Positions 5,514-26,178 of a stretch of DNA of 45,855 nucleotides are shown here, in pieces. Each line of letters begins with the position of its first letter. Position 1 is the first letter of the stretch. This DNA is from an uncultured Methanosarcinales archaeon (GTDB taxonomy: Archaea > Nanobdellota > Nanobdellia > Woesearchaeales > UBA583): positions 2,030 to 47,884 of the forward strand of contig CAYLKB010000001.1 in the NCBI GenBank assembly GCA_964384165.1, written 5' to 3'. The notes beneath the pieces were generated by a model, which ran no database searches, was not told the origin of the DNA, and saw only the letters and a program-made list of their open reading frames with translations. A program made the position numbers and the translations under genes.

Positions 5514-5551
5514 GCCAAGATCGCATAATCCGGTATTGCGCAACCCTGGAA
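5514..5551 (+). tRNA. 5' half of chromosomal tRNA-Ser(GGA): acceptor 5' strand, D-arm, anticodon-stem 5' strand, loop nt 32-37
   Basis: GCCAAGA-TC-GCAT-AATCCGGTA-TTGC-G-CAACC-CTGGAA. The acceptor strand GCCAAGA and anticodon-stem strand CAACC are exactly complementary to TCTTGGC and GGTTG at 37304-37345. No T-arm or 3' acceptor strand follows locally. Confidence 0.8.
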
Positions 5552-5553
5552 AG
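5546..5553. repeat. left copy of att core / direct repeat CTGGAAAG
   Basis: An identical 8-mer is found at 37297-37304. It coincides with anticodon loop nt 32-38 plus one further nt. Confidence 0.75.
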
Positions 5554-6536
5554 AACGAGCAATAAGCACTACTTCTCATATTAATCCAAGTGTTGGAATT
5601 GGAAAAACCCAATTAAATGACTTGTATCTATCAAATTCTCAACAATTTGTCAATCAAGTAATCCAAAAAGAAGGAGATACAAATATTGTCCAAAAAGATG
5701 ATTTTATGTTAAAAAGTATATACTTTATAGAGAGAAAAAAATTTGAAAAATATGTGAAAAAGACTTTTTCTACAACTTATAGTGTTAGTGTAACTAATCA
5801 TCTTCAAAAAATATTTGAAAAATATGATGTAAAATCAATTCCAGAGATGAAAAAATTAGTCAATAGTGGAAAAATACATCAAAAAGGTGGAAGTCTTGCT
5901 ATTAGAGTTCTTTTAAATTATTGTGAAAGAAACGATTTAATAGATATTGATGATATAGATGCTATTAGAAGAAGAATAAAAATTGAAAGTAAAGAAAATA
6001 TAGATAGATTTATTCCAAATGATAATGATATTGAGAAATCTATTAATTATATTAAAGAAAATTTAGAAAGAAAACATCTATTGATTTATCATTTTATGAT
6101 ACAAACAGGGTGCAGGTGGACTGAAACTGTTGATTTCTTTAAAACATTTAATGAAAAACATTTAGAAATTGAAGGAGATGTGTGTGCTTACTCTCATTTT
6201 TATTTAAGAGGTAAGAAAACATCTTTCTATTTGCTCTTTACAAAGCAATTATATAATGAATTAAAACCATTTATTGGTAAAATTACTAAAAAGGATATGA
6301 TTTATTTGAAGAGAAAAATACAAAGAGATAAAGAAGAAGGAACAATTTGTTTGAAATATTTGAGAAAATATTGTTTTACTTCTATGATTAAGAGTGGAAT
6401 TACAATTGAAGTTGCTAATATGATTAATGGTAGAAGTCAAAAATCTAATGTAGGCATAACTCACTACTTGAACCAAAAAGAGATTATGATAAAAGAGTAT
6501 CAAAAAGTTATGGAAAAATTCTTGGAATTGGTTTAA
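5547..6536 (+). CDS. SSV-type tyrosine integrase, C-terminal fragment Int(C) (gene partitioned by integration)
   Basis: The frame is open from 5529 through the att core (..QPWKERAISTT..) into ORF 5622..6536. Tyrosine-recombinase-like boxes: MIQTGCRWTE, LRKYCFTSMIKSG, GRSQKSNVGITHYL. It is a paralogue of the intact integrase at 35403..36710 (TGCRWTE/EGDVCAY versus SGARWKS/YGDVAVY). No plausible ATG lies at the junction. Confidence 0.75.
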   Translation, partial: WKERAISTTSHINPSVGIGKTQLNDLYLSNSQQFVNQVIQKEGDTNIVQKDDFMLKSIYFIERKKFEKYVKKTFSTTYSVSVTNHLQKIFEKYDVKSIPEMKKLVNSGKIHQKGGSLAIRVLLNYCERNDLIDIDDIDAIRRRIKIESKENIDRFIPNDNDIEKSINYIKENLERKHLLIYHFMIQTGCRWTETVDFFKTFNEKHLEIEGDVCAYSHFYLRGKKTSFYLLFTKQLYNELKPFIGKITKKDMIYLKRKIQRDKEEGTICLKYLRKYCFTSMIKSGITIEVANMINGRSQKSNVGITHYLNQKEIMIKEYQKVMEKFLELV

Positions 6537-7822
6537 TTATTATTTATTTTTTCAACATATGAAGGATAAGTAATTGGTGATAATTTATAAAAATAATAAT
6601 AAAGACCACACATTTCAAAAAATTCAAAGATATTTTCTAAAACATCATCATCTATCCAAAAATCTTTATAGTAATTACAACCTTCATATAAAAAATTCTT
6701 CATTAAAGAATATTCACCTTCAAATGGTTCATATTTTGATATTTTTTTATATATATTTCTTTCAGAATAAGTAATTATATTCCCAAAAATATCAAATTGA
6801 TTTTTCACATCTATTTTTTTCCTTTCTTTATCCATATCTTTAATAAAGTTTAATAATAGTTTTTTATAATTTCCTTGATATTTTTTTAATAATTTTAATG
6901 TTGAAAAAAATGAATTAAATTCTTCTCCTATTGCTAATATGAATTTTTTATATGTTTCAAGATAATTAAATTTATCACTTTTTTTAAAATTCTTTCTTAT
7001 TTGTTCATCATATATATATTCAAGATATTTGATATAATTATCTTCTACTATTGTTTTTATTATTTTATCATAATTAGAAAAATAAACAGATTTTAATTTT
7101 TTAAATCTTTTAATTTTATAATCTAAATTTTTAGAGTTATAATCAATTGTCATTATTTTATCAATTTCCATTGAATTTATAGTGGCTGTTTCATATTTAG
7201 AATATTGTTTTTTTAATCTACCTTTATTATCAATATTATTTTTAATTTTTTTAAAATTTTCTGTGTTTTGTAATTCTTTATAAAAATTAATTCTATCTAA
7301 ATTTAATTCATCAAGAGTATAATTTATCAAATAAGATATTAAATATTTATTTAATTCATAATAATTATTAGATTTTGAAAAAGTAACTATATTTGTTTCT
7401 TTTATATCTTTCAGGGAAGTATTATAACTACTCAAAGAAATTTTTTTCTTTTTTAATCTATTACTATTTGTATAATATTGAGATTGAATTCCTTTTTTTA
7501 AAATAAATTCTTTTATTTCTTCATAATCATTATGAAAGACTTTTATTACTGTAATTATTAAAAGTATTTCTTGTGTTTTAAAACATCTTATATCCTTAAT
7601 TTCTTTCATAATTAACTCTTTGTTAAAGTTTTCTTTGGGTGGAATTGGCAAATTACATATTTCAGTTTCTAAATTATTTTTAAATTGAAAATACATCTCT
7701 TTCCATCTTTGTTGAATTTTTTTAATTACTTCTTTATCTTTTTTTATTTCATAGTTCTTATGTAAATATTCCTTAAATCCTGTAATAATTTCTGTTTCTA
7801 AAGGAAGACCATTTGATTTCAT
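6533..7822 (-). CDS. hypothetical protein (N/K/Y-rich, 429 aa)
   Basis: Long uninterrupted ORF, convergent with Int(C) with a 4-nt stop overlap. No recognisable motif. Confidence 0.5.
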   Translation of the reverse strand: MKSNGLPLETEIITGFKEYLHKNYEIKKDKEVIKKIQQRWKEMYFQFKNNLETEICNLPIPPKENFNKELIMKEIKDIRCFKTQEILLIITVIKVFHNDYEEIKEFILKKGIQSQYYTNSNRLKKKKISLSSYNTSLKDIKETNIVTFSKSNNYYELNKYLISYLINYTLDELNLDRINFYKELQNTENFKKIKNNIDNKGRLKKQYSKYETATINSMEIDKIMTIDYNSKNLDYKIKRFKKLKSVYFSNYDKIIKTIVEDNYIKYLEYIYDEQIRKNFKKSDKFNYLETYKKFILAIGEEFNSFFSTLKLLKKYQGNYKKLLLNFIKDMDKERKKIDVKNQFDIFGNIITYSERNIYKKISKYEPFEGEYSLMKNFLYEGCNYYKDFWIDDDVLENIFEFFEMCGLYYYFYKLSPITYPSYVEKINNN

Positions 7823-7938
7823 AATAAATTATAATTTATTTTATTTAAATTTCTATCGTTTTAAAATTAATATATAAGGGTTACTTGTAAATCAACAACA
7901 AGTGAAATCTCTATCTTCATAGGTATTAACTATTGTAT

Positions 7939-7955
7939 CCTTGTTTGAAACAAGG
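7939..7955. promoter_or_regulatory. perfect 17-bp palindrome CCTTGTTT-G-AAACAAGG upstream of the wHTH gene (candidate operator)
   Basis: 8-bp arms around one central base, read directly, 16 nt upstream of the ATG at 7971. Confidence 0.35.
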
Positions 7956-7970
7956 TAGTTAAAATTTAAA

Positions 7971-8573
7971 ATGACAAATATTAATTTGACAAATAAAGAA
8001 ATAGATAAACTACCAATTCAAGAAAGAATTGGAACATACTATCTATTGAAAAGAAAAAATGCTACTAATGTAATTATTGCATTAGGTAGAGGTTACAATA
8101 CTGCATCTCAAATTAAGAGAGAATTTAATTTGTATCACAATACAGTATTAATAATATTAAAAGAATTTGAGAATAGAAATATTGTAGAAAAAATAAATAA
8201 AGAAATGAAAAAAAGTTGGACTTTTGCTTTAACTGATTATGGAATTAAATTACTACAAACACTTGGAGAAGAACCAAGTATTAATATCTCAAATAATGAT
8301 GTTGAAATAAATGAAATCAAAGAAGAAGTTAAGGAAAAATCAAAAGAACTTGTTCAAATTACTAATCCTAAAAACAATGTTGCAATGTATGTTAATGGTA
8401 AGTATAAAGAATTAATTGATATTATTGAAAAAGAAACTCCTCATAATAGATATACTATTGCAGATATTGGTTTTAAATTACAATTAATTAAAATTGCAAA
8501 GATGTGTAATGACAATCATAAAGTTAATGATTGGTTTGAGAGGTATGGAAATAATTTAAGTGAGGTGATTTAA
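7971..8573 (+). CDS. winged-helix (ArsR/MarR-like) DNA-binding protein
   Basis: 200 aa. The N-terminal segment NVIIALGRGYNTASQIKREFNLYHNTVLIILKEFENRNIVEK...WTFALTDYGIKLL has an HTH-plus-wing pattern. It is the first gene of a tightly packed + operon running to 10184. Confidence 0.6.
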   Translation: MTNINLTNKEIDKLPIQERIGTYYLLKRKNATNVIIALGRGYNTASQIKREFNLYHNTVLIILKEFENRNIVEKINKEMKKSWTFALTDYGIKLLQTLGEEPSINISNNDVEINEIKEEVKEKSKELVQITNPKNNVAMYVNGKYKELIDIIEKETPHNRYTIADIGFKLQLIKIAKMCNDNHKVNDWFERYGNNLSEVI

Positions 8574-8942
8574 ATGAAAAGTAAAAGTATAAATGACTTA
8601 ACTCATTTTTTGAATAACAATTATAGTATTATACAATGTAAATTTAATAATACTAAATATGAGTTTGAAACAAATATGCCATTAGGTTATTACTATGAGT
8701 TTATTGAATTTGAAATATATGTTTCAAAACAATTAATTAAAAAAGTTCACCCTTGTATTGATTGGACAGAAGAAATTGAACAAGTTTTCAATGATAATAA
8801 TCTAAATAATATTGAAAAATATAATGAAAAACTTCAATTAATAATTACAACGATGGATAATGTGGAAGTCTTTATGTTAATTGATTATTATAATGAAATA
8901 ATTCAAATTATAAGTAGTGAGGAAATGAAAAATGAATTATAA
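8574..8942 (+). CDS. hypothetical protein
   Basis: 122-aa ORF starting 1 nt after the upstream stop, preceded by a GAGGTGA-like SD. Confidence 0.5.
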   Translation: MKSKSINDLTHFLNNNYSIIQCKFNNTKYEFETNMPLGYYYEFIEFEIYVSKQLIKKVHPCIDWTEEIEQVFNDNNLNNIEKYNEKLQLIITTMDNVEVFMLIDYYNEIIQIISSEEMKNEL

Positions 8943-9261
8943 AACTCATAGAAGATGGACTAAAATGGAATATGATAATATGAAACAAGATAGATTAAAT
9001 GGTATGTCTTATGAAGATATTTCATTAAAATACAATCGTGGTTTAGAGGGAGTAAAAAGAAAATTTTTTAGAGGACATAGTAAGGATAAAAGATTGTCTA
9101 AATATATTAATCCACATTTTATTAGAAAATTTAAAGATGATTATTTCAATCAAAATTTGCCAACAAATGAAATTACAAATAAATATGGATTTAATAGAAA
9201 TCAACAGGTATATCAAATTGCTCATAGATTAAAAAAAGAAGGTGAAAAAAGAAAATGTTAA
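8932..9261 (+). CDS. hypothetical protein, possible Myb/SANT-like HTH
   Basis: 109 aa. HRRWTKMEYDNMKQDRLNGMSYEDISLKYNRGLEGVKRKF resembles a Myb-like helix-turn-helix. Overlaps both neighbouring genes. Confidence 0.45.
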   Translation: MNYKTHRRWTKMEYDNMKQDRLNGMSYEDISLKYNRGLEGVKRKFFRGHSKDKRLSKYINPHFIRKFKDDYFNQNLPTNEITNKYGFNRNQQVYQIAHRLKKEGEKRKC

Positions 9262-10184
9262 AAGGAAACAATAAATATCCATTTACAGAAAAATATAGAC
9301 CTAATTGTTGGGGTGATTTAGTTTATAAAGATAAGTGGAAATTAAAGAAAAACTTTGAACTAAATAGAATTACACATCTTTTAGTGTATTCAGAGAGTGG
9401 GGGAACTGGCAAGGGTTCAATTGCCAATATAATTAAAAATCAATATGAACAAACTTTTCTTGAAATTAATTGTGGAATTGATAATGGTAAAGATTATTTA
9501 TCAAAAAGAATTGTTGATATTCCTTCTATAATTAATTGGTATTCTGGGAGAAGAAAAGTTTTATTTATTGATGAAGTTAATAAATTATCTCCTGAAGCAT
9601 TTGAAACTTTAAAAGTTCCTCTTGAAAAATATGCTCATATTTGTATGGTAATAATTGCAACTAATAATATAAAAAAAATTCCACAACCAGTTTTATCAAG
9701 ATTTTATAAAATAGATTTATCAAATCCTGATAAAGATATGATTTTAGAAAGATTAAAATATATTTGTGAAGAAGAAAATGTCCAATATAATGAAGATATA
9801 TTAAGAAATATAATTAAAGATTATTATCCTTCAATTAGAGAAATGATAACACATATTCAAGTAAATCAAGATTATTTATGTGAGGAAGTAGTTAAAAGCA
9901 ATTCACTAACAAAAAAACAAGTTAATTATATTTGGAGAGGATTTATACAAGTAAGAAAAATAATTCCATTATTAAATCATTGTCAAAAGAATAAGTTGAA
10001 TTATTATGATGTTATCAAATCATTAGAAAGTGCAACAAGAATTAGAAATGTTGCTGGTGATAAAACAAATGATATTCAAAGATTAATTGTAGATTACAAA
10101 AACAAAATAATAAATGAACAAAATTCTGACAATTTAATGGAAGAATTTTTACATAAATTTGACAAAATTTTGTCAAAAAAATAA
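9255..10184 (+). CDS. RFC/clamp-loader-like AAA+ ATPase
   Basis: 309 aa. N-terminal EKYRPNCWGDLV (RFC box II-like), P-loop ESGGTGKGS (Lys followed by Gly rather than S/T), Walker B VLFIDEVNKL, sensor region IIATNNIKKIPQPVLSRF. Confidence 0.75.
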   Translation: MLKGNNKYPFTEKYRPNCWGDLVYKDKWKLKKNFELNRITHLLVYSESGGTGKGSIANIIKNQYEQTFLEINCGIDNGKDYLSKRIVDIPSIINWYSGRRKVLFIDEVNKLSPEAFETLKVPLEKYAHICMVIIATNNIKKIPQPVLSRFYKIDLSNPDKDMILERLKYICEEENVQYNEDILRNIIKDYYPSIREMITHIQVNQDYLCEEVVKSNSLTKKQVNYIWRGFIQVRKIIPLLNHCQKNKLNYYDVIKSLESATRIRNVAGDKTNDIQRLIVDYKNKIINEQNSDNLMEEFLHKFDKILSKK

Positions 10185-10684
10185 TTTATTTTTATCCAGC
10201 AGAAAGCTTTATTAACCTGTAAATCCATATAATATTATAATACCAAAACATATTTTTATTGTTGTTTTTTGGTCGTTTAGGTATTATAATCCAAAGTTGA
10301 TTATGGTTCAGATATGGGAAATCAAATCTTGTATCTCTATGGTAATTTATTGCCCCCTTTAATATGGTTTTTGGTATGTGGGTGTAAGAAGGTATCAATT
10401 TGAGAGGTGGTTTTTCCATATATCTGTGATTTTTTGGAAAGTAAGGACATAATTGGAAGTTTCTTATAATACAATAAACACGAAAAATAGGAGTAGAAAT
10501 GGACATAAAAATGATAAAAAATAGTGTAAAAATGGATAAAATTGGTCATAATCTCGTAACTCAATTTCAAAGTATGAAATTTGACTTTACATTATTTTCA
10601 AGAAAAGTAAAAAAAATTAGAAAAATCATCTAAAAATTTACAAATTTAAGACAAATTTTTGTATGAAACTTTACAAAATTACAG

Positions 10685-10816
10685 ATGAGTAAGATGGTAG
10701 AAGTATTAACACAAGAGGAATTTGATGAGCTAACACCAGTTCAACAAGAAGAGTATAGGAACAAATTAACTTATAATTTGGAAGAATTTCGAGATATGGG
10801 AATATATAATAATTGA
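10685..10816 (+). CDS. small acidic ORF (43 aa), hypothetical
   Basis: ATG..TGA read by hand (MSKMVEVLTQEEFDELTPVQQEEYRNKLTYNLEEFRDMGIYNN). Its stop overlaps the start region of the next gene. Below the ORF-track size cutoff. Confidence 0.25.
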   Translation: MSKMVEVLTQEEFDELTPVQQEEYRNKLTYNLEEFRDMGIYNN

Positions 10817-10818
10817 AA

Positions 10819-11082
10819 ATGGGAAATAATAACACAAATACAAAAGAAAATAATGAGTTAGATGAAAAATACATTTTCACATTATTTAATGAATTTGAAA
10901 ATTCAATGCAAGAAGGAAGTATCAAGATTTCAATTAAAGATGCAAAACCAATAGTTATAGAAAATACAATCATTTATGATTATATTAAAAATAATTTTGA
11001 GGGATACAAAAATGAATATCAAGTATTTAGACATTTCATTTATACATTAGTAGAAGAACAAAAAACATTGTCAATAGAATAA
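10819..11082 (+). CDS. hypothetical small protein, paralogue A
   Basis: The ATG at 10819 is preferred over the TTG at 10813. Shares EGSIKISIKDAKPIVIENT...Y...F with the next ORF. Confidence 0.5.
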   Translation: MGNNNTNTKENNELDEKYIFTLFNEFENSMQEGSIKISIKDAKPIVIENTIIYDYIKNNFEGYKNEYQVFRHFIYTLVEEQKTLSIE

Positions 11083-11085
11083 AAA

Positions 11086-11427
11086 ATGGGAGAAAGAACA
11101 TTAGAAGAAGAAAGTAGAGATTTAATCTACAAAGAATTAACACAAAATGAAAATTTTGTAGAAGATTTATTTAAAACTTATAAGACATCAAAAGAAGTTG
11201 TTGAAGATGGGAGTTTGATATTGAGAGTTAAAGATGCAAAACCAATTATCATCTCAACATCATTGATTGGAAAATACATCTCAAAGAATTGTAATGAAAT
11301 AAAAGAAGAGTGCGAGTATCACTTTTTTAAATTATTTTTAACCAATTTAATTGGAGAATGTGTTAGTATGAACATAGGTATAGAAAAAGCACTTGAAGAT
11401 GAAAATGAGTTCCAACAAGCTAAGTAA
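11086..11427 (+). CDS. hypothetical small protein, paralogue B
   Basis: DGSLILRVKDAKPIIISTS..KYISKN..EY.FFKLFLTNL aligns with the upstream ORF (tandem duplication). Confidence 0.5.
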   Translation: MGERTLEEESRDLIYKELTQNENFVEDLFKTYKTSKEVVEDGSLILRVKDAKPIIISTSLIGKYISKNCNEIKEECEYHFFKLFLTNLIGECVSMNIGIEKALEDENEFQQAK

Positions 11428-11539
11428 GAAGGAAATAAGGAGAAATGCTTATATTGGTATTGGATTGTTAGTTATTTTGATTATTTTATTTTATTTGAAC
11501 AACAATATATATAAATAACTAATATAATTATATTTTTAG

Positions 11540-12451
11540 ATGGTTATTTTTAAAGATACTAATGGTAGTTTAAAGAAAGTTAAAGAAATTGGTTTTAATT
11601 TAGAAGAAGAAATGCAAAACCTTGTTGGTAAGAATTTAGATACAATATTTGGTCTTGAATTTGTAAGACACGAATTCTTATTGGATAATTTAAGAATAGA
11701 TACACTTGCATTTAACAAAGAAAATAATTCTTTTGTAATAATTGAATATAAAAATAAACAAAATTTTAGTGTTATTGACCAAGGGTATGCCTACCTATCT
11801 TTAATGTTAAATAACAAAGCAGATTTTATTTTAGAATATAATGAACAAACTAATTCTAATTTAAAAAAAACAGATATAGATTGGTCACAATCAAGAGTTA
11901 TGTTTGTATCTCCTTCTTTCTCAAAATATCAACTTCAAGCAATCAATTTTAAAGACCTACCTTTTGAATTATGGGAAATTTCAAGATATGATAATAATTT
12001 AATTCAAATGAGTAAAATTAAGACTTCTGAAACAAGTGAAAGTATTAAAAAAGTATCAAAAGATATTGCTACAAACATTGTAGATAAAGAAGTTAAAGTA
12101 TATTCAGAAGAAGACCACTTACAAAATATGCCTGAAAAAATCAAGTCATTATATGAAGAATTGAAAAATCAAATATATACTATTGATAATAAAATCGAAC
12201 TTGAACCTAAAAAAATGTATTTAGCATTTAAATCTAATTCTAATTTTGTTGATGTAGTATTAAAAAAGAGTAAAATTAAGATACATCTTAATTTAAAAAA
12301 AGGACAATTAAAGAGTTCATCTGAATTAGTAAGAGATGTTTCAAATATTGGTCATTGGGGGAATGGAGATTATGAAGTTCAATTATCTAATGCAGAAGAT
12401 TTGCCAGTTGTATTGTCTTTAATTAAACAAAGTTATGATTTAAATAATTAA
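11540..12451 (+). CDS. PD-(D/E)XK (NucS-like) nuclease-fold domain fused to a DUF5655-like C-terminal domain
   Basis: 303 aa. LRIDTLAFNKENNSFVIIEYKNK..VIDQGYAYL matches the D...(I/V)E-x-K nuclease core. The C-terminal KKMYLAFKSNSNFVDVVLKKSKIKIHLNLKK is typical of DUF5655. Confidence 0.6.
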   Translation: MVIFKDTNGSLKKVKEIGFNLEEEMQNLVGKNLDTIFGLEFVRHEFLLDNLRIDTLAFNKENNSFVIIEYKNKQNFSVIDQGYAYLSLMLNNKADFILEYNEQTNSNLKKTDIDWSQSRVMFVSPSFSKYQLQAINFKDLPFELWEISRYDNNLIQMSKIKTSETSESIKKVSKDIATNIVDKEVKVYSEEDHLQNMPEKIKSLYEELKNQIYTIDNKIELEPKKMYLAFKSNSNFVDVVLKKSKIKIHLNLKKGQLKSSSELVRDVSNIGHWGNGDYEVQLSNAEDLPVVLSLIKQSYDLNN

Positions 12452-12452
12452 T

Positions 12453-14204
12453 TTAATCTTTATCATATTTTAAATTAACTTGAACTCCTAACAATTTACC
12501 TTCTTCTTTCTCATCACTTAAATATAACACAATATTCTCATTATTTTCTCCAAAAATTCTTTTTTGTTCTTCTTCGTTATATTCTTGCATAATAGTATCG
12601 TATTGGTCTTGATTTAATGAAGCAATATATTGTAAGTTATCATTAATAGTATTTTCATAAGCAAGTCTGAAAAGAATTGCTCTTTGTCTTGGGTCTATTT
12701 CACTAAATAATTTACTATCGTGAAAAAGAAAATTTATATTATGATTATTTCTCGCTTTAAGTAATGTAAAATCAAATGAGAATATTTTTACTGAATTAAC
12801 TCCACCAGAACTATCATCATCTAAACTTGCTTTTATTTCATATCTTAAAGTATTAATATTTTCATTTGGTATAATCTCAATCCCACCTGCTTTATCTTCA
12901 TAAAATTCTCTTGAAAATGACCTGAATAATTGTAAATTCCTTTCTAATATACTTTTTTTATTTTTTAAACTCTTATTTGCTTCAATATCTTGATTTTTAA
13001 ATTCTAATTTTATTTCATTTATTTTATCTTCATATTCTTCTTTCAACTCTTTATATTCTACCAATTTATCATATTGTTTCTTTAATGAATATAAATTATT
13101 ATTAATTACTTCTAATTTTTCAAAAGCACCATATTTTTTTAGGAATAATGATTTTTCATTATAATCTTGTTGAAGTGTAATCATTTGTTTATTTAAGTTC
13201 ATTAATTCTTTTGTTAATTTTTCTTCTTCTATATTTAATCTATATTTTCTATTCTCAATTATTTTGTTATGAAATAAATTAATCTCATCTAATTTTTTTG
13301 TAATTATTTCTCCAAAATGAACATTTGCTTCTTCGTAAACTTTTTTGATTTTTTTTAGATTAATATCAACCTTTAACTCTTTACTCTTTGCAATGTTTTT
13401 CAATGCATTTTCTAATAAAGAAATTTTATTGTTGATAATATGTATTTGAATTCCTATTTGTTTTGTTGTTTTTTCAATTTCATTATAATTTTCAGCAATT
13501 TTAAAATCTTTTTTTTCTTTTTCTAATTTATTAATTCTTTCTTTAATATCATATATACTAAAATTTAATGAATTATCTTGTTGAAAATGTTTTTTTAATA
13601 TCTCATCATTTTCTAAATTATTTAGATTAGTTTTTATTTTGTCCAATTCTCCTTTTAATTGAAATTTGCTATTTATTAAGGAAATGTTTAATCCAAGTAA
13701 ATAACCAGTATTAATTATAGGCGAGTGAGGATTCTTATCTTCATTTTTTACATAGAAATCATAAGAGTTGTAACTTTCTTTTGTAGGTCTAATAAATCTA
13801 CTAATTAAATTTCTAAAAGTTAAATATGGAATATTAGAAGTTATATCAAAAACTTTTTGTCCCATATACTCTCTAAATTTTGTTAAGGAGTATTCTTTGT
13901 CATTGATATAGATTTTCTTTTGATTATTTGCTTGTCTTTTAATTAAATATATTTCATTATTAATCTCAACTGTCAAATAAAACTCCCAATCATTTAATTT
14001 TTTCTTAATATCAGGTATTTCATTAGAACCTAAACAAAAATGAATTAAAGCAATTGTTAAGGATTTTCCAGTTCCATTATATGTTCCCTTTCCACCTTTT
14101 TTATCTGTATCTTTTTTTTTCGCTAAAATTATAGATAAACCTTTCTCATTAAACTCAATTGTTCTAAATGATTCTTTGTTTGCATCTAATTTAATTAATT
14201 TCAA
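12453..14204 (-). CDS. ABC-3C system SMC-like ABC ATPase (DUF2326-type)
   Basis: 583 aa. N-terminal Walker A YNGTGKSLT, a long central coiled coil, C-terminal signature-like DDSSGGVNSVK and Walker B NFLFHDS. Last gene of a 3-gene minus-strand operon with overlapping stop/start codons. Confidence 0.75.
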   Translation of the reverse strand: MKLIKLDANKESFRTIEFNEKGLSIILAKKKDTDKKGGKGTYNGTGKSLTIALIHFCLGSNEIPDIKKKLNDWEFYLTVEINNEIYLIKRQANNQKKIYINDKEYSLTKFREYMGQKVFDITSNIPYLTFRNLISRFIRPTKESYNSYDFYVKNEDKNPHSPIINTGYLLGLNISLINSKFQLKGELDKIKTNLNNLENDEILKKHFQQDNSLNFSIYDIKERINKLEKEKKDFKIAENYNEIEKTTKQIGIQIHIINNKISLLENALKNIAKSKELKVDINLKKIKKVYEEANVHFGEIITKKLDEINLFHNKIIENRKYRLNIEEEKLTKELMNLNKQMITLQQDYNEKSLFLKKYGAFEKLEVINNNLYSLKKQYDKLVEYKELKEEYEDKINEIKLEFKNQDIEANKSLKNKKSILERNLQLFRSFSREFYEDKAGGIEIIPNENINTLRYEIKASLDDDSSGGVNSVKIFSFDFTLLKARNNHNINFLFHDSKLFSEIDPRQRAILFRLAYENTINDNLQYIASLNQDQYDTIMQEYNEEEQKRIFGENNENIVLYLSDEKEEGKLLGVQVNLKYDKD

Positions 14205-14439
14205 CTTCTAATTCACCTTTTTTATTTAATTTAAGAACATTAATAGTATATAAAAAATCAATGCTTAATATAAATGTGTCAAAACTCAATGTTGAAGAAT
14301 ATTTTTTTCCTTTCATTTTTTCAACATCAATCCAAAGTTCATCAACATTTTTTGATTTCTTTTTTAATCTTTCAATTATTATTGAACCAATACCTATTAA
14401 GGATTCAGAATTTTTTATATGTTTTTCTGGAAAAATCAT
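14191..14439 (-). CDS. ABC-3C middle component (small wHTH-like adaptor)
   Basis: 82 aa. ATGA overlap with the upstream gene and a 14-nt overlap with the ATPase. Size, position and the LIGIGSIIIERL...SFDTFILSIDFLYTINVL pattern fit MC proteins. Confidence 0.6.
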   Translation of the reverse strand: MIFPEKHIKNSESLIGIGSIIIERLKKKSKNVDELWIDVEKMKGKKYSSTLSFDTFILSIDFLYTINVLKLNKKGELEVEIN

Positions 14440-15374
14440 TTTTTATTTTTAATTGGTGTTTCAAATATATCACAAGTTTCAAAATAATAGGACATTAATA
14501 CTAATGTAGCATTTAACATTGCTTGATTATTATCTGGAATAGATTTGTTTAGTATATCAAAAAATATCTGATTTTCATCTTTAAATTTCTTTTTTGCATT
14601 ATCATATAATTTTTTAAATTTCTTTTGTAAAATACTTCTATTATTTGAGTTAGATTCAAAATATGTTTCTATATTCCCTACTTGTAAATTAGCAGTTGAT
14701 AATAATGCATCAATATTAGGATTAAGATTGTTAAAGGTAATTTTTTCTTTAAAATCTGGTGCAATTGCTTTTCCTATAAAAGAAGTTTCAACTGGTTGTT
14801 TAAGTAAATAATTAATAACATCAATTAATGCAGACATACTTATATCATCATATAAATCTTCTTGATTAGGAATAAAACCAACTAATGATATAATATCTTG
14901 TTTTCCTAATGAAAAAAATACTTTTTGAATTTTTTCAGAATTAAAAATTTCAAAGTTTATTTTATTATGTTCTTTCTCTAATTCTAACAAACATTTGTGG
15001 ATTGGTTCAGGAACTCCTTCAAACTTATCATTAATAACAAATGAGAAATGTTTTATTTCACAACTTTTATCCCAAAATTTGAATAATCCCTTAAAATCAT
15101 CTTTTAACTTTTTTTTTGCATTAGAGAGTGCATTTATTAATGATTTAGGAGCATATACTTGATAATAATGTCCTTTGGTTTTGTTGAAACCATCATTTTT
15201 CCTATCTCCAATGTTCCCATATGCTTTAACAGCTTGAAAATCAGAATCAAACTTTAATAAAATTTTTACAAAAAAATCTTCAAATGATTGTCCATCTAAT
15301 TCAAATAAAAGATTTTTAAATTTTAATTCATAAAGATAAAACTCACTATTATTTAACATTATAAATATTTGCAA
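14436..15374 (-). CDS. ABC-3C effector component (N-terminal Mrr/REase-like region + helical C-terminal domain)
   Basis: 312 aa. The N-terminal FEDFFVKILL..VKAYGNIGDRKNDGF..YYQVYAP resembles Mrr-type PD-(D/E)xK N-termini. First gene of the operon. Confidence 0.55.
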   Translation of the reverse strand: MQIFIMLNNSEFYLYELKFKNLLFELDGQSFEDFFVKILLKFDSDFQAVKAYGNIGDRKNDGFNKTKGHYYQVYAPKSLINALSNAKKKLKDDFKGLFKFWDKSCEIKHFSFVINDKFEGVPEPIHKCLLELEKEHNKINFEIFNSEKIQKVFFSLGKQDIISLVGFIPNQEDLYDDISMSALIDVINYLLKQPVETSFIGKAIAPDFKEKITFNNLNPNIDALLSTANLQVGNIETYFESNSNNRSILQKKFKKLYDNAKKKFKDENQIFFDILNKSIPDNNQAMLNATLVLMSYYFETCDIFETPIKNKK

Positions 15375-15508
15375 ATTTATTTATATATAAAGTTTGTGCA
15401 ACAACTTGATAGAAATAACTATTTAGGGATAATTTTTGACACTTTTATGCCATCAGTTGTTATAAATAAATAACAAAGTATATAAAAAGGATTTATAGAA
15501 TAATTATT

Positions 15509-18292
15509 ATGGAATTAAATAAGCAACAATTAGATGCAATTCAATCTATTTCTCAACCAACTTTGATTGTTGCAGGTCCAGGAGCAGGAAAAACAAGAGT
15601 AATAGTTGAAAAAATTATTTATTTAGTTAAAGAAAAAAGATATAAACCTGAAAAAATATTTGTTTCAACTTTTACAGTAAAGGCATCAGATGAGTTAAAA
15701 CATAGATTAAGAAAAGAATTAGGAGATTCTGTTGAAAATATGCAAATAGGAACTTTTCATTCATTTTGTCAAACAATGCTTGAAACATATTCTAATGATA
15801 ATGGTTTTGGAACCTCATTTAGAGTTTTAGATGAAGAAGAGCAATATGCTTTAATTTCAAATTTTGCTAATTATGGTTATAGATATGGTCTAAAAGATAT
15901 AATTAAACCTGTTCAAGTTACTGATTTAATAAATATTTTTAATAAAATAACTGAAAATGCAATTGATTCTTATGAATTGATAGAATATGTTCAAGAAGAA
16001 CCTAATAATGATGATAAAGAAAAACGATTAAAGATTGCAGAAGCATATGATAAATATATAGGTCATTTGAAAGATTTACAATTAATGGATTTTGCAAACC
16101 TTCAAAAAGAATTTTTAAATATGATTGAAGATAATTCTGAAATATTAAGTGAAATAAAAAAATCATTTGATTATTATTTAATTGACGAATACCAAGATAC
16201 TAATCCTATACAAAATGAAATCTTAAAACTTCTTGTTAATCCTGAAAATAATATTACTTGTGTTGGTGATGAGGACCAATCAATTTATTCTTTTAGAAAT
16301 GCAACTGTTGAAAACTTTAGAAATTTTCATAATGATTTTAGTAATAGTAAAGAAATTAATTTAGAAACTAATTATCGTTCTACAAAAGATATTATTGATT
16401 TGAGTAATAATTTTATTAAAGAAAATAGAACTTATGAAAAAAAAATAGGTTCTAATAGAGATTCATTTAATAAACCATTAATCATAAAAGGAGTATCTTT
16501 TGAAGATGAAGCAGAGAAAGTAGTAAAATTTATTTTAAATTTAAAAGAAAATAATAAAATACAACATTTTGGAGATGTTGCTGTCCTGTTCAAAAGTGTA
16601 AGATATCACTCAAAAGAATATGTTGAAATGTTTAATAAATTTGAGATTCCATTTGAAATAAAAGGTGATGGAAGTTTGTTAAATGAAAATGAACTTAAAA
16701 CCATTATATATTTGATGGCTTATTTGAAAGACTTTACTCCAAATGAGAAGATAATTGAAAAATGGGATTATTTGGGTTATGAATTATTATTTAATAATGT
16801 ATTAAATCTTAATGAAAAATCAATTGAAATTATTAGACAAAATATTACCTCTGAAAATCTTGATGAATTATTCATATTAGATAAATTAAAAGATTTAAAT
16901 ATTGATAAGGAAGATATTAGAAAATTAATGACATTAAAAAAGACCAAAGAAATGGTTATCAAAAAAGATAAAGGAAAAGATAAATACTCTTTAACTGATT
17001 TATTTTATGATGTATTAAGAACAACTGGTTACTTGAATAGACTTTTTGAGAATACAGAAGATTTAATGAATGAGATTATGATTTCAAATTTGGGAGAATT
17101 GAGTTTAATTATAAATAAATATGAAAACAATGTTGGAAATAATTTCAAAAATTTCATTTATTATTTAACTTATTTACCTGAAGAAAAGAAGAGAGATTCT
17201 GCTTCTAACAACGATGGAAAATCTGTAAAAATTATGACAATTCATCAATCAAAAGGATTACAATTTCCAGTAGTAATTATGGGGACAGTTACTTTTGAGA
17301 GATATAACAAAAAAAGACCTAAATTTGGGGAATTTTTTGAAATACCAAATAAACTTATGATGTTAAAGAAGGAACCAAGTGAAGAAGAAGAAAAAAAAAG
17401 ATTATTTTATGTGGCAATGACAAGAGCTCAAGATTTATTAGTATTTGCAACAACAGATGGAACACAAGTCTCTCCATCAACATTTTTAACAAATGATATT
17501 GGAATTAATAATTTACAAAGTATTGAAAGTTTTAATAAGAAATTAGAAAAAACAGCTGATGAACCTGATAAAATTAAACAAATGACTTATTCAGCAGTTA
17601 ATAACTATTTATCTTGTCCATTTAGATTTAAATTAAATTATGAATATGGATTTCAAACTAAACCTACATATTTTCAAAATTATGGGATTGTTGTTCATAA
17701 TGTTCTTCATAAATTTCATATTGATATAAAAAATAATCAAATAGTTGAAAGAAAATTAAGACAAAGAGTAAGAGAGATAGTTATTTCTTGTTGGATGCCT
17801 GTGTCCAATAATTCATCAAAAGATGAAAAGTTAAGAGAACATTTAATTGAAGAACTTGTTAATTATTATCGTAATGTAAAAGATGATATAAAGGAAATAG
17901 TTGAAATTGAAAAACCATTTTCATATATTGATTCAAATATTGTAATTAAAGGTAGGTTAGATTTAATGATAAAAAATAAAGATGATAAAATCGAATTATG
18001 GGATTTTAAAGCAAGAAATGTAGAAAATATTGATGATACATTTGTTAAAGAACAATTAAAGATGTATAATATTGCTTTACAAAATCAATATAATATTGAT
18101 AACTTAATTGCTTATACATTTAAAGATAATATGAAAACTCCATTTGATAATAGCCAAAAAGAATTAGATAAAACAAAAAAGTTATTAAATAATATCAAAG
18201 AAAGTATAATTAAGAACAAATTTGAAAGGAATTTAAACTCAAAATTCTGTAATTATTGCGATTATAGATTCCTATGTTATAAAAATGGTTGA
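15509..18292 (+). CDS. UvrD/PcrA-type SF1 helicase fused to a Cas4/AddB-like PD-(D/E)XK Fe-S nuclease
   Basis: 927 aa. Helicase motifs AGPGAGKT, IDEYQDTN, VGDEDQSIYSFRNA, TNYRS, TIHQSKGLQFPVV, LFYVAMTRAQ. C-terminal CPFRF...LWDFKAR...QLKMYN...CNYCDYRFLC, i.e. a nuclease core flanked by Cys residues. Confidence 0.85.
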   Translation: MELNKQQLDAIQSISQPTLIVAGPGAGKTRVIVEKIIYLVKEKRYKPEKIFVSTFTVKASDELKHRLRKELGDSVENMQIGTFHSFCQTMLETYSNDNGFGTSFRVLDEEEQYALISNFANYGYRYGLKDIIKPVQVTDLINIFNKITENAIDSYELIEYVQEEPNNDDKEKRLKIAEAYDKYIGHLKDLQLMDFANLQKEFLNMIEDNSEILSEIKKSFDYYLIDEYQDTNPIQNEILKLLVNPENNITCVGDEDQSIYSFRNATVENFRNFHNDFSNSKEINLETNYRSTKDIIDLSNNFIKENRTYEKKIGSNRDSFNKPLIIKGVSFEDEAEKVVKFILNLKENNKIQHFGDVAVLFKSVRYHSKEYVEMFNKFEIPFEIKGDGSLLNENELKTIIYLMAYLKDFTPNEKIIEKWDYLGYELLFNNVLNLNEKSIEIIRQNITSENLDELFILDKLKDLNIDKEDIRKLMTLKKTKEMVIKKDKGKDKYSLTDLFYDVLRTTGYLNRLFENTEDLMNEIMISNLGELSLIINKYENNVGNNFKNFIYYLTYLPEEKKRDSASNNDGKSVKIMTIHQSKGLQFPVVIMGTVTFERYNKKRPKFGEFFEIPNKLMMLKKEPSEEEEKKRLFYVAMTRAQDLLVFATTDGTQVSPSTFLTNDIGINNLQSIESFNKKLEKTADEPDKIKQMTYSAVNNYLSCPFRFKLNYEYGFQTKPTYFQNYGIVVHNVLHKFHIDIKNNQIVERKLRQRVREIVISCWMPVSNNSSKDEKLREHLIEELVNYYRNVKDDIKEIVEIEKPFSYIDSNIVIKGRLDLMIKNKDDKIELWDFKARNVENIDDTFVKEQLKMYNIALQNQYNIDNLIAYTFKDNMKTPFDNSQKELDKTKKLLNNIKESIIKNKFERNLNSKFCNYCDYRFLCYKNG

Positions 18293-19931
18293 AAAAAAAA
18301 TAAAATATAAGGGAGGGTTAGAATTAAATTGGATAAATAAACATCAATCTGTCTATTACGAATATGATGAAAATGGTAATCCTGGAGAGCCAATATGGGT
18401 TGATAAAAATGATATTAGAGTTTCAGAACCAAGAATATTAAAACATATAGAGGACTTTGGAGATACTTCAAATTTAAAGGAACCATTAGATAATGCTTTA
18501 ATAAAAGGAGATAACTTATTAGGATTAAGAACTCTTGTAGAAGAATTCAAAAATAGACCTGAAAAAAATAAAGTAAAATGTGTTTACATAGACCCACCAT
18601 ATAATACAGGTAATGATGATTTTATATACGATGATAATTTAAAACATTCTGAATGGTTAACAATGATGAGAGATAGGTTATTGTTAATTAAAAAATTAAT
18701 GAGAAATGATGGAGTTATATTTATTTCAATTGATGATAATGAAAATCATAGGTTGAGGCTTTTATGTGATGAGATTTTTGGTCCTGAAAATTTTATTGCT
18801 AATATTGTATGGAAAAAAAGAAGTGGTGGTGGGTATACTAATGCTTTACTATCTACAAATCACGAATATGTGTTGGTTTATGCAAAAAATAGAATTAATG
18901 TAGTTTTTAATGATAAAGAAAAAAATATTAATGAACTTAAAAAAAAATATAATTGTGAAGATGAAAAAGGAATTTATAAAAGAAGAGATTTAAGAAAATC
19001 AGGTTCAGCAGATTTAAGAGTTGACAGACCAACAATGTTTTATGAGATTAATGCTCCAGATGATTCAATTATTATTCCTATTCGTCCAAAAGATAAAAAA
19101 GAAGGAAGGTGGTGTGTTGGTAAAAATAAATTTTATGAATTAAAAGATAACAATGATATTGAATTTGTAAAAATAAAAGGACATTGGAAAGTTTATTTAA
19201 AAGAAAGACCATATAAAGAAGAGGGAGTAATGAAGAAAGAAAAATATGAAACTATTTGGGATAATGTAGCATTAAATACACAAGCAAGAAATGAAATTAA
19301 AAATATTTTCCCAGAAAAAGAAAATCCCTTTGATTATCCTAAACCAATAAAATTAATAAAATTTATTTTAAATATTGCAACTAATGAGGGAGATTTAATA
19401 TTAGATTCTTTTGCAGGTTCAGGTTCAACAGGTCAGAGTATATTCGAAATGAATGAAATCACAAAAATACATAGAAAATTTATATTAATTGAATTACAGT
19501 CTAAAATTGCAGAAGAAATTACCAAAGAAAGATTGAATAGGTATATTTTAAATAAAAAGAATGGGTTTGGTTTTAGGTATTATCAACTTGGAGAATCATT
19601 AATTAAAGATAATGATATGAATTGGGATTTAACTTATGAAGAAATAGCAAAAGCATTGTTTTTTACATTTGATTTTTCCTTTGATAATAAAATAAACGAA
19701 AATACTTATTATGGACATAATGAAAAAGCAACTGCTTTATGTATTGTATCTAAAAAATTAAACATATTAAATAAAAACCAAATCGAAGAATTTATTTCAA
19801 AAATAAAAAATAAAAGAGAAAAGTTAGTTATCTATACAAATAATGGTATAGCAATTAAATCAAATGATTTAGATGATTCAATTGTAATTAAAAAAATACC
19901 TGAATCAATATTGAGGAAATATAAATTATAA
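18285..19931 (+). CDS. mod: Type III R-M Mod subunit (beta-class N6-adenine/N4-cytosine DNA methyltransferase)
   Basis: 548 aa. Motif IV VYIDPPYNTGND precedes motif I DSFAGSGSTGQ (beta permutation). The ATG overlaps the helicase stop (ATGGTTGA). Confidence 0.85.
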   Translation: MVEKKIKYKGGLELNWINKHQSVYYEYDENGNPGEPIWVDKNDIRVSEPRILKHIEDFGDTSNLKEPLDNALIKGDNLLGLRTLVEEFKNRPEKNKVKCVYIDPPYNTGNDDFIYDDNLKHSEWLTMMRDRLLLIKKLMRNDGVIFISIDDNENHRLRLLCDEIFGPENFIANIVWKKRSGGGYTNALLSTNHEYVLVYAKNRINVVFNDKEKNINELKKKYNCEDEKGIYKRRDLRKSGSADLRVDRPTMFYEINAPDDSIIIPIRPKDKKEGRWCVGKNKFYELKDNNDIEFVKIKGHWKVYLKERPYKEEGVMKKEKYETIWDNVALNTQARNEIKNIFPEKENPFDYPKPIKLIKFILNIATNEGDLILDSFAGSGSTGQSIFEMNEITKIHRKFILIELQSKIAEEITKERLNRYILNKKNGFGFRYYQLGESLIKDNDMNWDLTYEEIAKALFFTFDFSFDNKINENTYYGHNEKATALCIVSKKLNILNKNQIEEFISKIKNKREKLVIYTNNGIAIKSNDLDDSIVIKKIPESILRKYKL

Positions 19932-19933
19932 AA

Positions 19934-22624: not shown

Positions 22625-22668
22625 ATTAAATCATAATTCTTATAAACAATTAAAATTTTAATTAAGTT

Positions 22669-25820: not shown

Positions 25821-26178
25821 ACAATATCTTCCAAGAAGTTTATTTATTAATTAATCGTTTTTTATACCAAATTCCTAATGCTATTATAATTAACAATCCC
25901 CAAGAGTTCCAATTTGTCATATAAACAGCATTTATACTTGCTAATATTAGAGTTAGATATTCAATTGTATTAATTATATCTTTATCTTTTGAGTTCATAA
26001 CTAAATTATTATATTGTTTCTTTATATATTTTTTGTGAAAATTGTGTTAAAAAAATGTCATAATCCCAACACAAATTTGTCTTTTACTTACACATATCAA
26101 ATAAAGTTTAACGAGTTTTGAATATTTGGGATAAATTTTAATAACAATCTATTTAAAAAACTAAATTCTAAACCAATT

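Follow-up and report, generated by a model that had tools for sequence, protein, structure and literature searches.

What becomes of a tRNA gene that has been cut through its anticodon loop? In a low-GC (~25%) DPANN archaeon, a relative of the Nanoarchaeota/Woesearchaeota, the two halves of a tRNA-Ser(GGA) gene stand at opposite ends of a long integrated element, and the sequences adjoining them can pair in the manner of an archaeal tRNA intron. A preliminary description of this locus took it for a split tRNA gene in which the element behaves as an intron, and held that this would be direct evidence for the proposed link between integrative elements and the origin of split or intron-containing tRNA genes. 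Here we examine the whole stretch of DNA around the locus, a window of 45,855 nucleotides, together with related elements in other hosts. [quoted passage not shown]

A host tRNA-Ser(GGA) gene in two halves

The two pieces of the host gene are as follows:

5514..5552, + strand: host tRNA-Ser(GGA) 5' half, nt 1-38 with the entire anticodon loop, constituting attL
37304..37347, + strand: host tRNA-Ser(GGA) 3' half, nt 39-73, constituting attR

The 5' half reads GCCAAGATCGCATAATCCGGTATTGCGCAACCCTGGAA (5514-5551) and the 3' half AGGTTGTCCCTTTGGGATTCTGGGTTCAAATCCCAGTCTTGGCG (37303-37346, plus G73), and the two are perfectly complementary in both the acceptor stem (GCCAAGA/TCTTGGC) and the anticodon stem (CAACC/GGTTG). 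Joining position 5552 to 37304 yields an 84-nt tRNA-Ser(GGA) that ARAGORN reports free of mismatches, so that two separate loci together make up one cloverleaf; the 21-mer across the predicted host-type junction is GCAACCCTGGAAAGGTTGTCC. AT-rich, TATA-like boxes lie 5' of both halves. The one before the 5' half (ATATATAAAG, 5471-5480), already noted in the preliminary description, is shared with a divergent ORF, and the one before the 3' half with the integrase gene, int. Reading the sequence from the int promoter to the 3' half, and just past the 5' half, reveals no oligo-T terminator, so both precursor RNAs could be made. The host halves are perfect, without decay, a state that fits retained function and recent insertion equally.

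The halves flank an element with a partitioned integrase

Between the halves lies a mobile element, with the following parts:

5553..37296: integrated element, ~31.75 kb; its left and right modules are conserved and its defence cargo varies
5554..6536, + strand: Int(C), the C-terminal catalytic part of a split SSV-type integrase
37118..37296, + strand: Int(N), the N-terminal, ribbon-helix-helix (RHH)-like part of the same integrase
35403..36710, - strand: int2, a second, uninterrupted integrase paralog of 435 aa
11540..25820: cargo of anti-virus defence genes
36826..36910, - strand: complete element tRNA-Ser(GGA), the proposed replacement gene

Joining 37118-37303 to 5553-6536 produces a single open frame of 389 aa, and the rejoined protein matches PF16795 (E 3e-25) and aligns from end to end, N-terminal domain included, with the uninterrupted relative P0027 (E 1e-48). 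The family alignment contains the invariant R, K, R, H and Y motifs, and Int(C) matches the protein P0001 at 100%. The attachment site attP lies within the int ORF at codons ~58-66 (ARFWKERA), and int is accordingly partitioned to both element ends. The ORF that starts at the ATG at 37118 continues across attR and the tRNA 3' half to 37441, in keeping with the earlier placement of the 3' half inside the Int(N) transcript; homologous Int(N) ORFs likewise run into differing host tRNA halves. The Int(N) and Int(C) parts at the ends, the rejoined frame and the junctions in relatives bear out the proposal that insertion of a mobile element split the gene.

The left module is common to two related loci (L002 and L003) and the right module to three others (L014-L016). 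int2 matches PF16795 (E 7e-9), is 25% identical to Int over 333 aa, and is kept in L014, L015 and L019. The cargo, identified with Pfam and PADLOC, comprises PDC-S18, a Lamassu-like PDC-M68/ABC-3C system, a UvrD-nuclease, a type III restriction-modification system, GmrSD/HEC-05 and a DUF2779 protein. A PHROGs search of the conserved backbone proteins for viral hallmarks returned a clamp-loader-like ATPase only, and no capsid or packaging genes.

The source is a metagenome, and several related contigs end at the D-arm, a stretch that host and element tRNAs have in common; both facts could suggest that the arrangement is an assembly chimera or, if real, an accidental off-target insertion without generality. 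We regard this as highly improbable, since both junctions recur identically in separate Logan assemblies. In those of SRR7048222, attL is contained in L001, which equals window positions 1274-5611 with 0 mismatches, and attR in L019, which equals 33711-38271, also with 0 mismatches. At least five further samples also contain related elements with the same junctions, next to host alleles that differ. The chimera that the preliminary description itself named as a way to refute its reading is thus not what the independent assemblies show.

The attachment site shares seven nucleotides with its target

The sequences involved in recombination are:

5546..5552, + strand: left copy of the 7-bp overlap (core) CTGGAAA, the anticodon loop
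37297..37303, + strand: right copy of the same overlap
5553..5566, + strand: attP right arm GAACGAGCAATAAG, within the int coding sequence, the 'trailer' of the 5' half
37283..37296, + strand: attP left arm CTTAACGCTCGTTT, the 'leader' of the 3' half

The two junctions are identical over only 7 nt, the anticodon loop CTGGAAA. In this the preliminary description needs correcting: an eighth position, a G, matches by chance in the present host, and T stands there in others. In relatives the host sequence differs at both edges of the loop, with CAACC, CAAGA or CGAGA on the 5' side and GGTTG, GCTTG or TCTTG on the 3' side, and the Int(N) read-through products P0011 and P0012 show two further host alleles. 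The same loop position has been struck in six or more host genes for tRNA-Ser(GGA), all different, and integration into the loop is thus both recurrent and precise.

Rejoining the element's ends gives the attP sequence GCTCGTTTCTGGAAAGAACGAGC, in which the two arms form an 11/14 inverted repeat. The left arm is the same in L014 and L016 and carries a single C-to-T change in L015. The reverse complement of the right arm, CTTATTGCTCGTTC, and the host half-site GGTATTGCGCAACC have TATTGC in common in the same register, and direct reading finds A, G and C at fixed positions in all four half-sites. These features suggest that attP is a simple lox/dif-like site, made up of the 7-bp overlap CTGGAAA between 14-nt imperfect inverted-repeat arms that would be the binding sites of the integrase. 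For the SSV1 integrase, strand exchange takes place at the borders of the anticodon loop, and inverted repeats plus overlap act as the core site (PMC8371274). By analogy, strand exchange at our locus would occur at the loop edges.

Past the core, the element's sequence does not continue the tRNA, and no segment that could rebuild the gene is carried there. Classical SSV-type elements embed a tRNA 3' segment in attP; the attP described here is without one, which is why the host gene was not rebuilt. Within the wider family some members do embed the T-arm in attP, as seen in GSNPS translations, and one locus (L005) has an intact hybrid tRNA. A possible decayed relic of a tRNA 3' end lies in the Int linker at 5583-5596 (12/14; shuffle p ~0.014); it is weaker in L002 and absent in L004, and we keep it merely as a lead.

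Pairing between the flanks resembles a splice site

The preliminary description drew a bulge-helix-bulge (BHB) motif across the two junctions, and the pairing that it gave for the flanks is present in the sequence as claimed, as are its coordinates for the halves and the complementarity of their stems. GAACGAGC (5553-5560) pairs with GCTCGTTT (37289-37296) over 8 bp including one G.U, and beyond a 2x2 loop TAAG (5563-5566) pairs with CTTA (37283-37286). CUGG occurs at both 5546-5549 and 37297-37300, and AAA at both 5550-5552 and 37301-37303. A helix, 3-nt bulge, 4-bp helix, 3-nt bulge and helix can therefore be formally drawn, with cleavage sites that would restore the loop.

Cofolding, the computational check suggested earlier, reproduces the outer helices every time, so that trailer and leader complementarity does adjoin the halves. 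The central helix fares less well. At the junction, the minimum free energy (MFE) structure (-18.6 kcal/mol) contains a central helix of 6 bp, CUGGAA/UUCUGG, and its bulges are AGA and AAA; the canonical 4-bp register lies 0.6 kcal/mol above it at -18.0 kcal/mol, and an open 7x7 loop at -17.4 kcal/mol. The pair probability of CUGG/CUGG, which includes two G.U pairs, is ~0.58 in the cofold, and the central helix contributes ~0.6-1.2 kcal/mol. It is thermodynamically marginal, and because the MFE favours the 6-bp register and the probability is ~0.58, calling the motif 'textbook' was an overstatement.

Each component of the BHB-like appearance has a source other than splicing. The leader and trailer are complementary because they are the inverted-repeat arms of attP around the 7-bp overlap, and the arms are complementary to each other because both putatively bind the same integrase. 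Arms of this kind around an overlap are the usual core of a tyrosine-recombinase site, and complementary flanks are to be expected wherever the overlap of such a site coincides with the anticodon loop (PMC8371274). The CUGG/CUGG helix exists because a GGN-anticodon loop with C32 pairs with itself; with C32, such self-pairing is possible for AGN and GGN anticodons only. Anticodon-stem halves, complementary attP arms and self-pairing nt 32-35 (CUGG) then add up to the look of a BHB. Most probably, then, the intron-like pairing arises incidentally from the site at which the integrase recombines, and does not mark a working splice site.

Covariation between the arms was considered as a discriminator and set aside, because it is compatible with a DNA inverted repeat and an RNA helix alike. 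The C-to-T change in L015 is the only one seen; it would create a G.U pair, and at the same time it replaces Arg by Cys. The two ends of a divergent element were never found on a single contig; pairing the attL of L004 with the attR of L016, which come from sibling runs and are not proven to belong to the same element, would give two U.U mismatches.

The element carries its own tRNA-Ser(GGA)

Whether another tRNA-Ser(GGA) gene exists was a check proposed in the preliminary description, whose reader missed the intact copy within the element. Recognised by ARAGORN and by Rfam (RF00005, 53.7 bits), it lies ~390 nt from attR and ~200 nt upstream of int, and it is kept at the same place in L014, L015 and L016, all three of the related loci whose right end is visible. 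Its copies differ by compensatory double changes, A-U to G-C in the D stem and A-U to U-A in the T stem, and show no disruptive changes. The stems distinguish the two tRNAs: that of the host has GCCAAGA and CAACC, that of the element GCCACTA and GTAGA. This complete gene probably provides decoding in place of the split host gene, and we infer that the host halves are functionless.

The position of the element tRNA also invites another explanation. Reading from 36910 to 36826, the tRNA is followed after 116 nt, directly 3' and on the same strand, by the uninterrupted int2, a diverged paralog of Int; integrated elements of the pNOB8 type classically show this order, a tRNA and then an intact integrase on one strand (PMC3293823). 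The element tRNA could then be the att site of a second element, nested or fused and set there by int2, with the host coping otherwise for the loss of its gene. We think this quite unlikely: across the whole window there is no direct repeat of the 3' part of the element tRNA, nor any other long repeat, and int2, the tRNA and Int(N) occur together in every related right end. Because the three travel together, they belong to the backbone and are not a separate insertion, and the tRNA supplies its function whatever its origin.

The same logic appears in relatives that target other serine tRNAs. Those integrated at tRNA-Ser(GCU) have an orphan 5' half followed, after a spacer of 30 nt, by a complete tRNA-Ser(GCU) and then Int(C). 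Two distinct hosts show this layout, as does a second lineage (P0009), which indicates that disruption with replacement recurs. Orphan 5' halves are also found at UGA-targeting relatives. Genome and metagenome scans returned two loci each, all of them GCU- or UGA-type relatives. Scans of IMG/VR for a free circular attP or an empty site, using integrase relatives and three junction patterns, gave only unrelated chance phage matches; a look-up of the right-flank host gene recovered only the same integrated state; and at the threonyl-tRNA synthetase (ThrRS) of a related host (P0167) the neighbourhood is rearranged and the tRNA absent.

Discussion

Our preferred model, to which we give good though not overwhelming credence, is one of disruption and replacement. 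The element encodes a 389-aa, SSV-type 'suicidal' tyrosine integrase whose attP lies inside its own gene, and the overlap of this site, CTGGAAA, matches the tRNA-Ser(GGA) anticodon loop exactly. The circular element would have been inserted by strand exchange at both loop edges. The insertion divided int between Int(N) and Int(C), just as it divided the tRNA gene between attL and attR, and the element's own tRNA-Ser(GGA) gene would have taken over decoding.

The alternative favoured by the preliminary description is a nascent functional split tRNA, in which the element behaves as a 31.7-kb intron and the halves are spliced in trans. The host's tRNA promoter would make the 5' half and the Int(N) transcript the 3' half; the two would pair through the att arms and tRNA stems, be cut by the splicing endonuclease at 5551|5552 and 37302|37303, and be ligated by RtcB. 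The geometry is exactly as first described, the canonical register is close to the MFE, and cofolding of the full halves gives a cloverleaf with an extended helix (-44.7 kcal/mol), a predicted stable association in which the 3-nt bulges are nearly correctly placed. Both halves are intact, and in all relatives the 3' half is preceded by a conserved TATA-like box and by the start of int. The host, moreover, belongs to the Nanoarchaeota/Woesearchaeota, the group of Nanoarchaeum with its trans-spliced split tRNAs (PMC3218864), and endonucleases of broad specificity occur in DPANN relatives, (alpha-beta)2 in Nanoarchaeum and epsilon2 in ARMAN-2 (PMC6379350).

Against these points, the element family always carries its own, structurally constrained tRNA-Ser(GGA), which a working split gene would make pointless, and the attP inverted repeat accounts fully for the complementarity. 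The central helix, with its two G.U pairs, is an accident of the GGA loop and is not the favoured register, and the UGA and GCU lineages split their targets alike even though their loops (CUUG and CUGC) are incapable of self-pairing and cannot form it. The leader of the 3' half would also be at least ~180 nt long, and it is a translated mRNA. Trans-splicing, which the intact element copy makes unnecessary, is therefore unlikely, and so is the corollary that a split tRNA has been caught at birth in a relative of Nanoarchaeum, giving the cell a second, host-type tRNA-Ser(GGA). The att-site dyad, the intact copy and the UGA and GCU relatives together count against reading the locus as direct evidence of an element acting as an intron.

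Disruption with replacement sets this family apart from known SSV-type systems. With SSV1, pTN3 and pT26-2 it shares the catalytic family (PF16795), an attP within int, a partitioned int and a tRNA-gene target, and with SSV1 an overlap that is the anticodon loop between inverted repeats (PMC8371274). Known members have 40-50 bp or more in common with the tRNA and reconstitute the gene, whereas here the shared sequence is the 7-nt loop and the gene is left split; the replacement tRNA gene lies elsewhere on the element, there is a second, uninterrupted integrase paralog, and the low-GC DPANN host is no hyperthermophile. Genomic islands and prophages in tRNA and tmRNA genes likewise depend on a tyrosine integrase that exploits the anticodon stem-loop dyad, and a displaced tRNA fragment marks the island end (Williams 2002; Islander, PMC4383910). 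Those islands draw on attP sequence to restore their target; our element instead leaves two halves that do not overlap and imports an entire gene.

The locus resembles the split tRNA genes of Nanoarchaeum equitans, Caldivirga maquilingensis and the Desulfurococcales in that the halves lie apart with complementary flanks, the break is equivalent to the canonical position 37/38, and a BHB-like junction can be drawn. Those genes are the sole source of their tRNA and their joined product has been demonstrated, whereas ours is known from sequence alone and has an intact gene of the same anticodon ~390 nt away; here, too, the helix is AT-rich (8+4 bp) with two G.U pairs at its centre, and the 3' half is without a dedicated promoter. 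A recombinase element has been proposed to make tRNA fragments and split genes for the tRNA-Thr of Caldiarchaeum subterraneum (Sugahara et al. 2012, PMC3293823). That model involves a restored tRNA with a duplicated 5' fragment followed by homologous recombination; at our locus one site-specific event would give a pair of complementary halves whose flanks can pair.

Elements that integrate into tRNA genes are usually portrayed as conservative, restoring the gene that they cut. The family described here extends SSV-type suicidal integrases to mesophilic DPANN archaea and adds an archaeal integrase family that shares only the 7-nt loop with its target, leaves the gene in two pieces and brings a substitute tRNA. 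This suggests that a host can come to rely on the element for a tRNA that is essential. A further and less likely reading is that the element tRNA makes the element addictive: unless it were lost by precise excision, the cell would be deprived of tRNA-Ser(GGA).

Mobile elements have long been proposed as the source of split tRNAs and of tRNAs with introns (PMC3218864, PMC3293823). Here, one site-specific recombination would have broken a tRNA where introns canonically lie and left its halves with flanks that pair, in the broad lineage of Nanoarchaeum, and since the host is a relative of the Nanoarchaeota/Woesearchaeota, the locus offers a testable model of split-tRNA origin. On the unlikely reading in which the halves are spliced, every insertion by a tyrosine recombinase into an anticodon loop through an inverted-repeat attP would automatically make the leader/trailer helix of a split tRNA, and both split tRNAs and 37/38 introns would owe their origin to this mechanism.

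Results

A tRNA-Ser(GGA) gene divided by an integrated element

The host of this stretch (G+C about 25%) belongs to the DPANN archaea. The ThrRS it encodes shares 66-72% identity with proteins labelled at NCBI as Nanoarchaeota, Nanoarchaeia or Candidatus Woesearchaeota, and a relative of the integrase discussed below lies in the complete Candidatus Woesearchaeota archaeon genome CP060218.1. The preliminary description proposed that the host's tRNA-Ser(GGA) gene is split into two halves that trans-splicing at a textbook BHB motif would join.

Features of the window
4803-5450, minus strand: divergent 215-aa ORF
5514-5551: 5' half of the host tRNA-Ser(GGA); 5552 is the last nucleotide of the 7-nt loop
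9255-10184, plus strand: clamp-loader-like AAA+ ATPase (phrog_168, E 4e-35), in the conserved left module
11540-25820: defence genes, variable middle of the element
35403-36710, minus strand: int2, an uninterrupted 435-aa PF16795 paralog, 25% identical to Int
36826-36910, minus strand: intact element tRNA-Ser(GGA); about 390 nt separate it from attR, and it precedes the int start by about 200 nt
37303-37346: 3' half of the host tRNA-Ser(GGA), followed by G73

Direct reading places both halves at these sites with perfect acceptor (GCCAAGA/TCTTGGC) and anticodon (CAACC/GGTTG) stems, and ARAGORN calls an 84-nt tRNA-Ser(GGA), drawn without mismatches, from 5552 joined to 37304. Because separate Logan assemblies of run SRR7048222 hold the left junction, attL (contig L001, window 1274-5611), and the right junction, attR (contig L019, window 33711-38271), with zero differences, both junctions are genuine. 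Joining 37118-37303 to 5553-6536 yields a single open 389-aa frame, Int, with the archaeal integrase domain PF16795 (E 3e-25). Among the 1.84 billion cluster representatives searched, 259 proved to be relatives. Several are uninterrupted and full length; these combine an RHH-like N-terminal domain with a catalytic domain, and the linker between the two shows in translation the trace of an embedded tRNA T-arm (for example GDLGSNPS). Since the rejoined frame is open, carries PF16795 and aligns end to end with the uninterrupted protein P0027 (E 1e-48), the 31.75 kb between the cores is an integrated element with an SSV-type 'suicidal' integrase, split by integration into Int(N) and Int(C) as had been described.

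Relatives keep the element's left and right modules. The variable middle encodes PDC-S18, a Lamassu-like PDC-M68/ABC-3C pair with DUF2326, a UvrD helicase fused to a PD-(D/E)XK nuclease, type III R-M (Mod/Res), GmrSD/HEC-05 and DUF2779; other sets occur in related contigs (McrBC and a UvrD-nuclease in L007, HsdM and a CARF protein in L006). In the left module the ATPase is accompanied by four small ORFs and a 429-aa protein without assigned function, and comparison with PHROGs recognised no capsid or packaging genes among the element's conserved backbone proteins.

Two observations concern the left junction. The TATA-like box at 5471-5480, earlier cited for the 5' half, precedes the divergent ORF's start codon by 21-30 nt and may drive that ORF, leaderless, besides or in place of the tRNA half; because a terminator is absent after 5552, host tRNA transcription would continue into Int(C). 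Further in, AATCCAAGTGTTGG (5583-5596) matches the tRNA T-loop/acceptor 3' segment AATCCCAGTCTTGG at 12/14 positions (shuffle p about 0.014), in the same reading frame and one codon off the classical attP place (INPSVG versus SNPSLG). Its counterpart is weaker in L002 and absent from L004. The segment may descend, in decayed form, from an ancestral attP that restored the tRNA.

Geometry of the junctions

The sequence common to attL and attR is CTGGAAA only, the anticodon loop. The element's reconstructed site, attP, is CTTAACGCTCGTTT-CTGGAAA-GAACGAGCAATAAG, in which a 7-bp spacer separates two 14-nt arms, each the inverted repeat of the other at 11/14 positions; this is the layout of an ordinary tyrosine-recombinase core site. 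Strand exchange by SSV1 integrase takes place at the edges of an overlap equivalent to the anticodon loop, inverted repeats on either side of the overlap act as a sufficient site, and tRNA genes resemble attB owing to their 7-nt loop and palindromic stem (PMC8371274).

Half-sites, each written 5'->3' toward the core
Host left: GGTATTGCGCAACC
attP right (reverse complement): CTTATTGCTCGTTC
attP left: CTTAACGCTCGTTT
Host right (reverse complement): CCAAAGGGACAACC

By direct reading, all four half-sites have A at position 4, G at position 7 and C at position 10, and TATTGC is common, in register, to the attP right arm and the host left half-site. We infer that the attP arms bind the integrase; that would account for the complementarity of one arm to the other and so for the 'leader/trailer helix'.

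The described pairing of GAACGAGC (5553-5560) with GCTCGTTT (37289-37296) is present, as are the TAAG/CTTA pairing beyond a 2x2 loop, both CUGG segments and both AAA segments. Insertion leaves two opposed copies of the loop, bordered on one side by the anticodon-stem helix and on the other by the arm helix; a 4-bp helix with 3-nt bulges then arises automatically wherever nt 32-35 can self-pair. With C32-U33, self-pairing is possible for AGN and GGN anticodons only, a set that includes serine-GGA. The BHB geometry is thus possible (canonical 4-bp register, -18.0 kcal/mol on cofolding), but 'textbook' overstates it: the MFE structure (-18.6 kcal/mol) uses a 6-bp CUGGAA/UUCUGG helix with the 5' bulge shifted to AGA, and the CUGG pairs reach a probability of about 0.58. 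With an open 7x7 loop at -17.4 kcal/mol, the predicted energetics of the central helix are marginal. Because the full halves cofold into a cloverleaf plus extended helix at -44.7 kcal/mol, their association in trans is plausible on modelling.

An intact tRNA within the element

The window has one intact tRNA by ARAGORN and Rfam, and it is a further tRNA-Ser(GGA), inside the element at 36826-36910 and unnoticed in the preliminary description. Its stems are unlike the host's (acceptor GCCACTA, anticodon GTAGA/TCTAC). Int(N) used as query retrieved five related ORFs with 73-91% identity to that of the window, and every one continues into a tRNA 3' half that differs from one ORF to the next; all three loci for which DNA was retrieved (L014, L015 and L016) carry the element tRNA at the same place. 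The four copies show two compensatory double changes, one in the D stem (A-U to G-C) and one in the T stem (A-U to U-A), and no disruptive change; paired cells make up 97.9%. Given this shared position, the compensatory changes and the lack of disruptive ones, the element tRNA is under structural constraint throughout the element family.

Beyond the element tRNA lies int2 in L014 and L015, and a truncated, unannotated ORF in L016. In the window the two are encoded on one strand, int2 lying 116 nt past the tRNA, an arrangement known from integrated elements of the pNOB8 type. The int2 protein has the motif GWKNY versus GITHY in Int, and int2 is conserved in L014, L015 and L019. It might serve excision, or a second, tRNA-restoring integration route with the element tRNA as attP.

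Recurrence in other hosts and sister lineages

In Int(C) contigs of relatives, different host 5' halves are joined at the same nucleotide (L002 attL, ...CAAGA-CTGGAAA-GAACGAGC; L004 attL, ...CGAGA-CTGGAAA-AATCGTGC). In attR contigs the host 3' halves start GCTTG, TCTTG and TCTTG and differ in variable arms and T stems, and proteins P0011 and P0012 imply two further host alleles. At least six different host tRNA-Ser(GGA) alleles have thus been split identically; splitting is what the element normally does, and no accident. About 70 nt beyond the attR 3' half, L015 holds (3943-4026) AAGACTGGAAA, then 52 nt with a palindrome (CCAATTGAAC..GTTCAATGG), followed by a second copy of the 3'-half start up to the contig end; this looks like a remnant of another insertion at the same tRNA, or assembler-collapsed population heterogeneity.

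UGA-targeting integrases, 43-45% identical, lie after tRNA-Ser(UGA) 5' halves (L006, L018); their loop has CUUG, for which self-pairing is impossible. The L006 locus is syntenic with the window's host flank: ThrRS, pyrophosphatase, an ORF of about 212-215 aa, then the tRNA, a tRNA-Ser(GGA) 5' half at window 5514 versus a tRNA-Ser(UGA) 5' half at L006 9968, with nearly identical D arms. Either the orthologous tRNA changed anticodon or the attL loop derives from the element. L018 has an orphan 14-nt tRNA 5' fragment, GCCAACTTCGCATA (1552-1566), about 190 nt upstream of its orphan tRNA-Ser(UGA) 5' half (1755-1797); this tRNA locus has been struck more than once, possibly by a D-arm-targeting integrase.

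In GCU-targeting elements (L007 5640-5792; L010, L011 and L017 9751-9903) an orphan 5' half is followed, after a 30-nt spacer, by a complete tRNA-Ser(GCU) and then Int(C), with the frame open throughout. Two hosts that differ in the acceptor stem show this order, as does a second lineage, P0009. The orphan halves of the two hosts differ in the acceptor stem only (GCTGAGG versus GCCAAGG) and are identical from D arm to loop, so the crossover may be in the D-arm region, not the anticodon loop. In the T stem of the complete tRNA that follows, the two hosts differ by a compensatory change (CTGGG/CCCAG versus CAGGG/CCCTG). L005 has the classical arrangement, a single intact hybrid tRNA overlapping the Int(C) start. 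Two strategies, 'restore' and 'replace with a whole gene', are thus found within the family.

Discussion

The element and the junction geometry of the preliminary description are real, while a functioning split tRNA is not supported: the repeated carriage of a whole tRNA speaks against function of the split host genes, and we consider trans-splicing of the host halves improbable. The explanation we favour, with good confidence, is disrupt-and-replace integration that leaves an incidental BHB-like scar. The element shares with SSV-type suicidal integrases its domain, self-splitting gene, tRNA target and loop-sized overlap, but those reconstitute an intact tRNA, whereas this one does not (PMC8371274, PMC4383910). 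Nanoarchaeum-type split tRNAs resemble it in having separate halves with adjoining complementary sequence; in them, however, the tRNA comes from the split gene, a property not found here.

That mobile elements make split tRNAs has been proposed before (PMC3218864; PMC3293823). In the literature searched we found no DPANN suicidal integrase family that leaves its target split and carries a replacement tRNA, and no statement that an inverted-repeat attP centred on the anticodon loop automatically gives split-tRNA flank architecture. The element described here offers a natural case, at once concrete, recent and recurrent, in which site-specific recombination splits tRNA genes in the Nanoarchaeota lineage.
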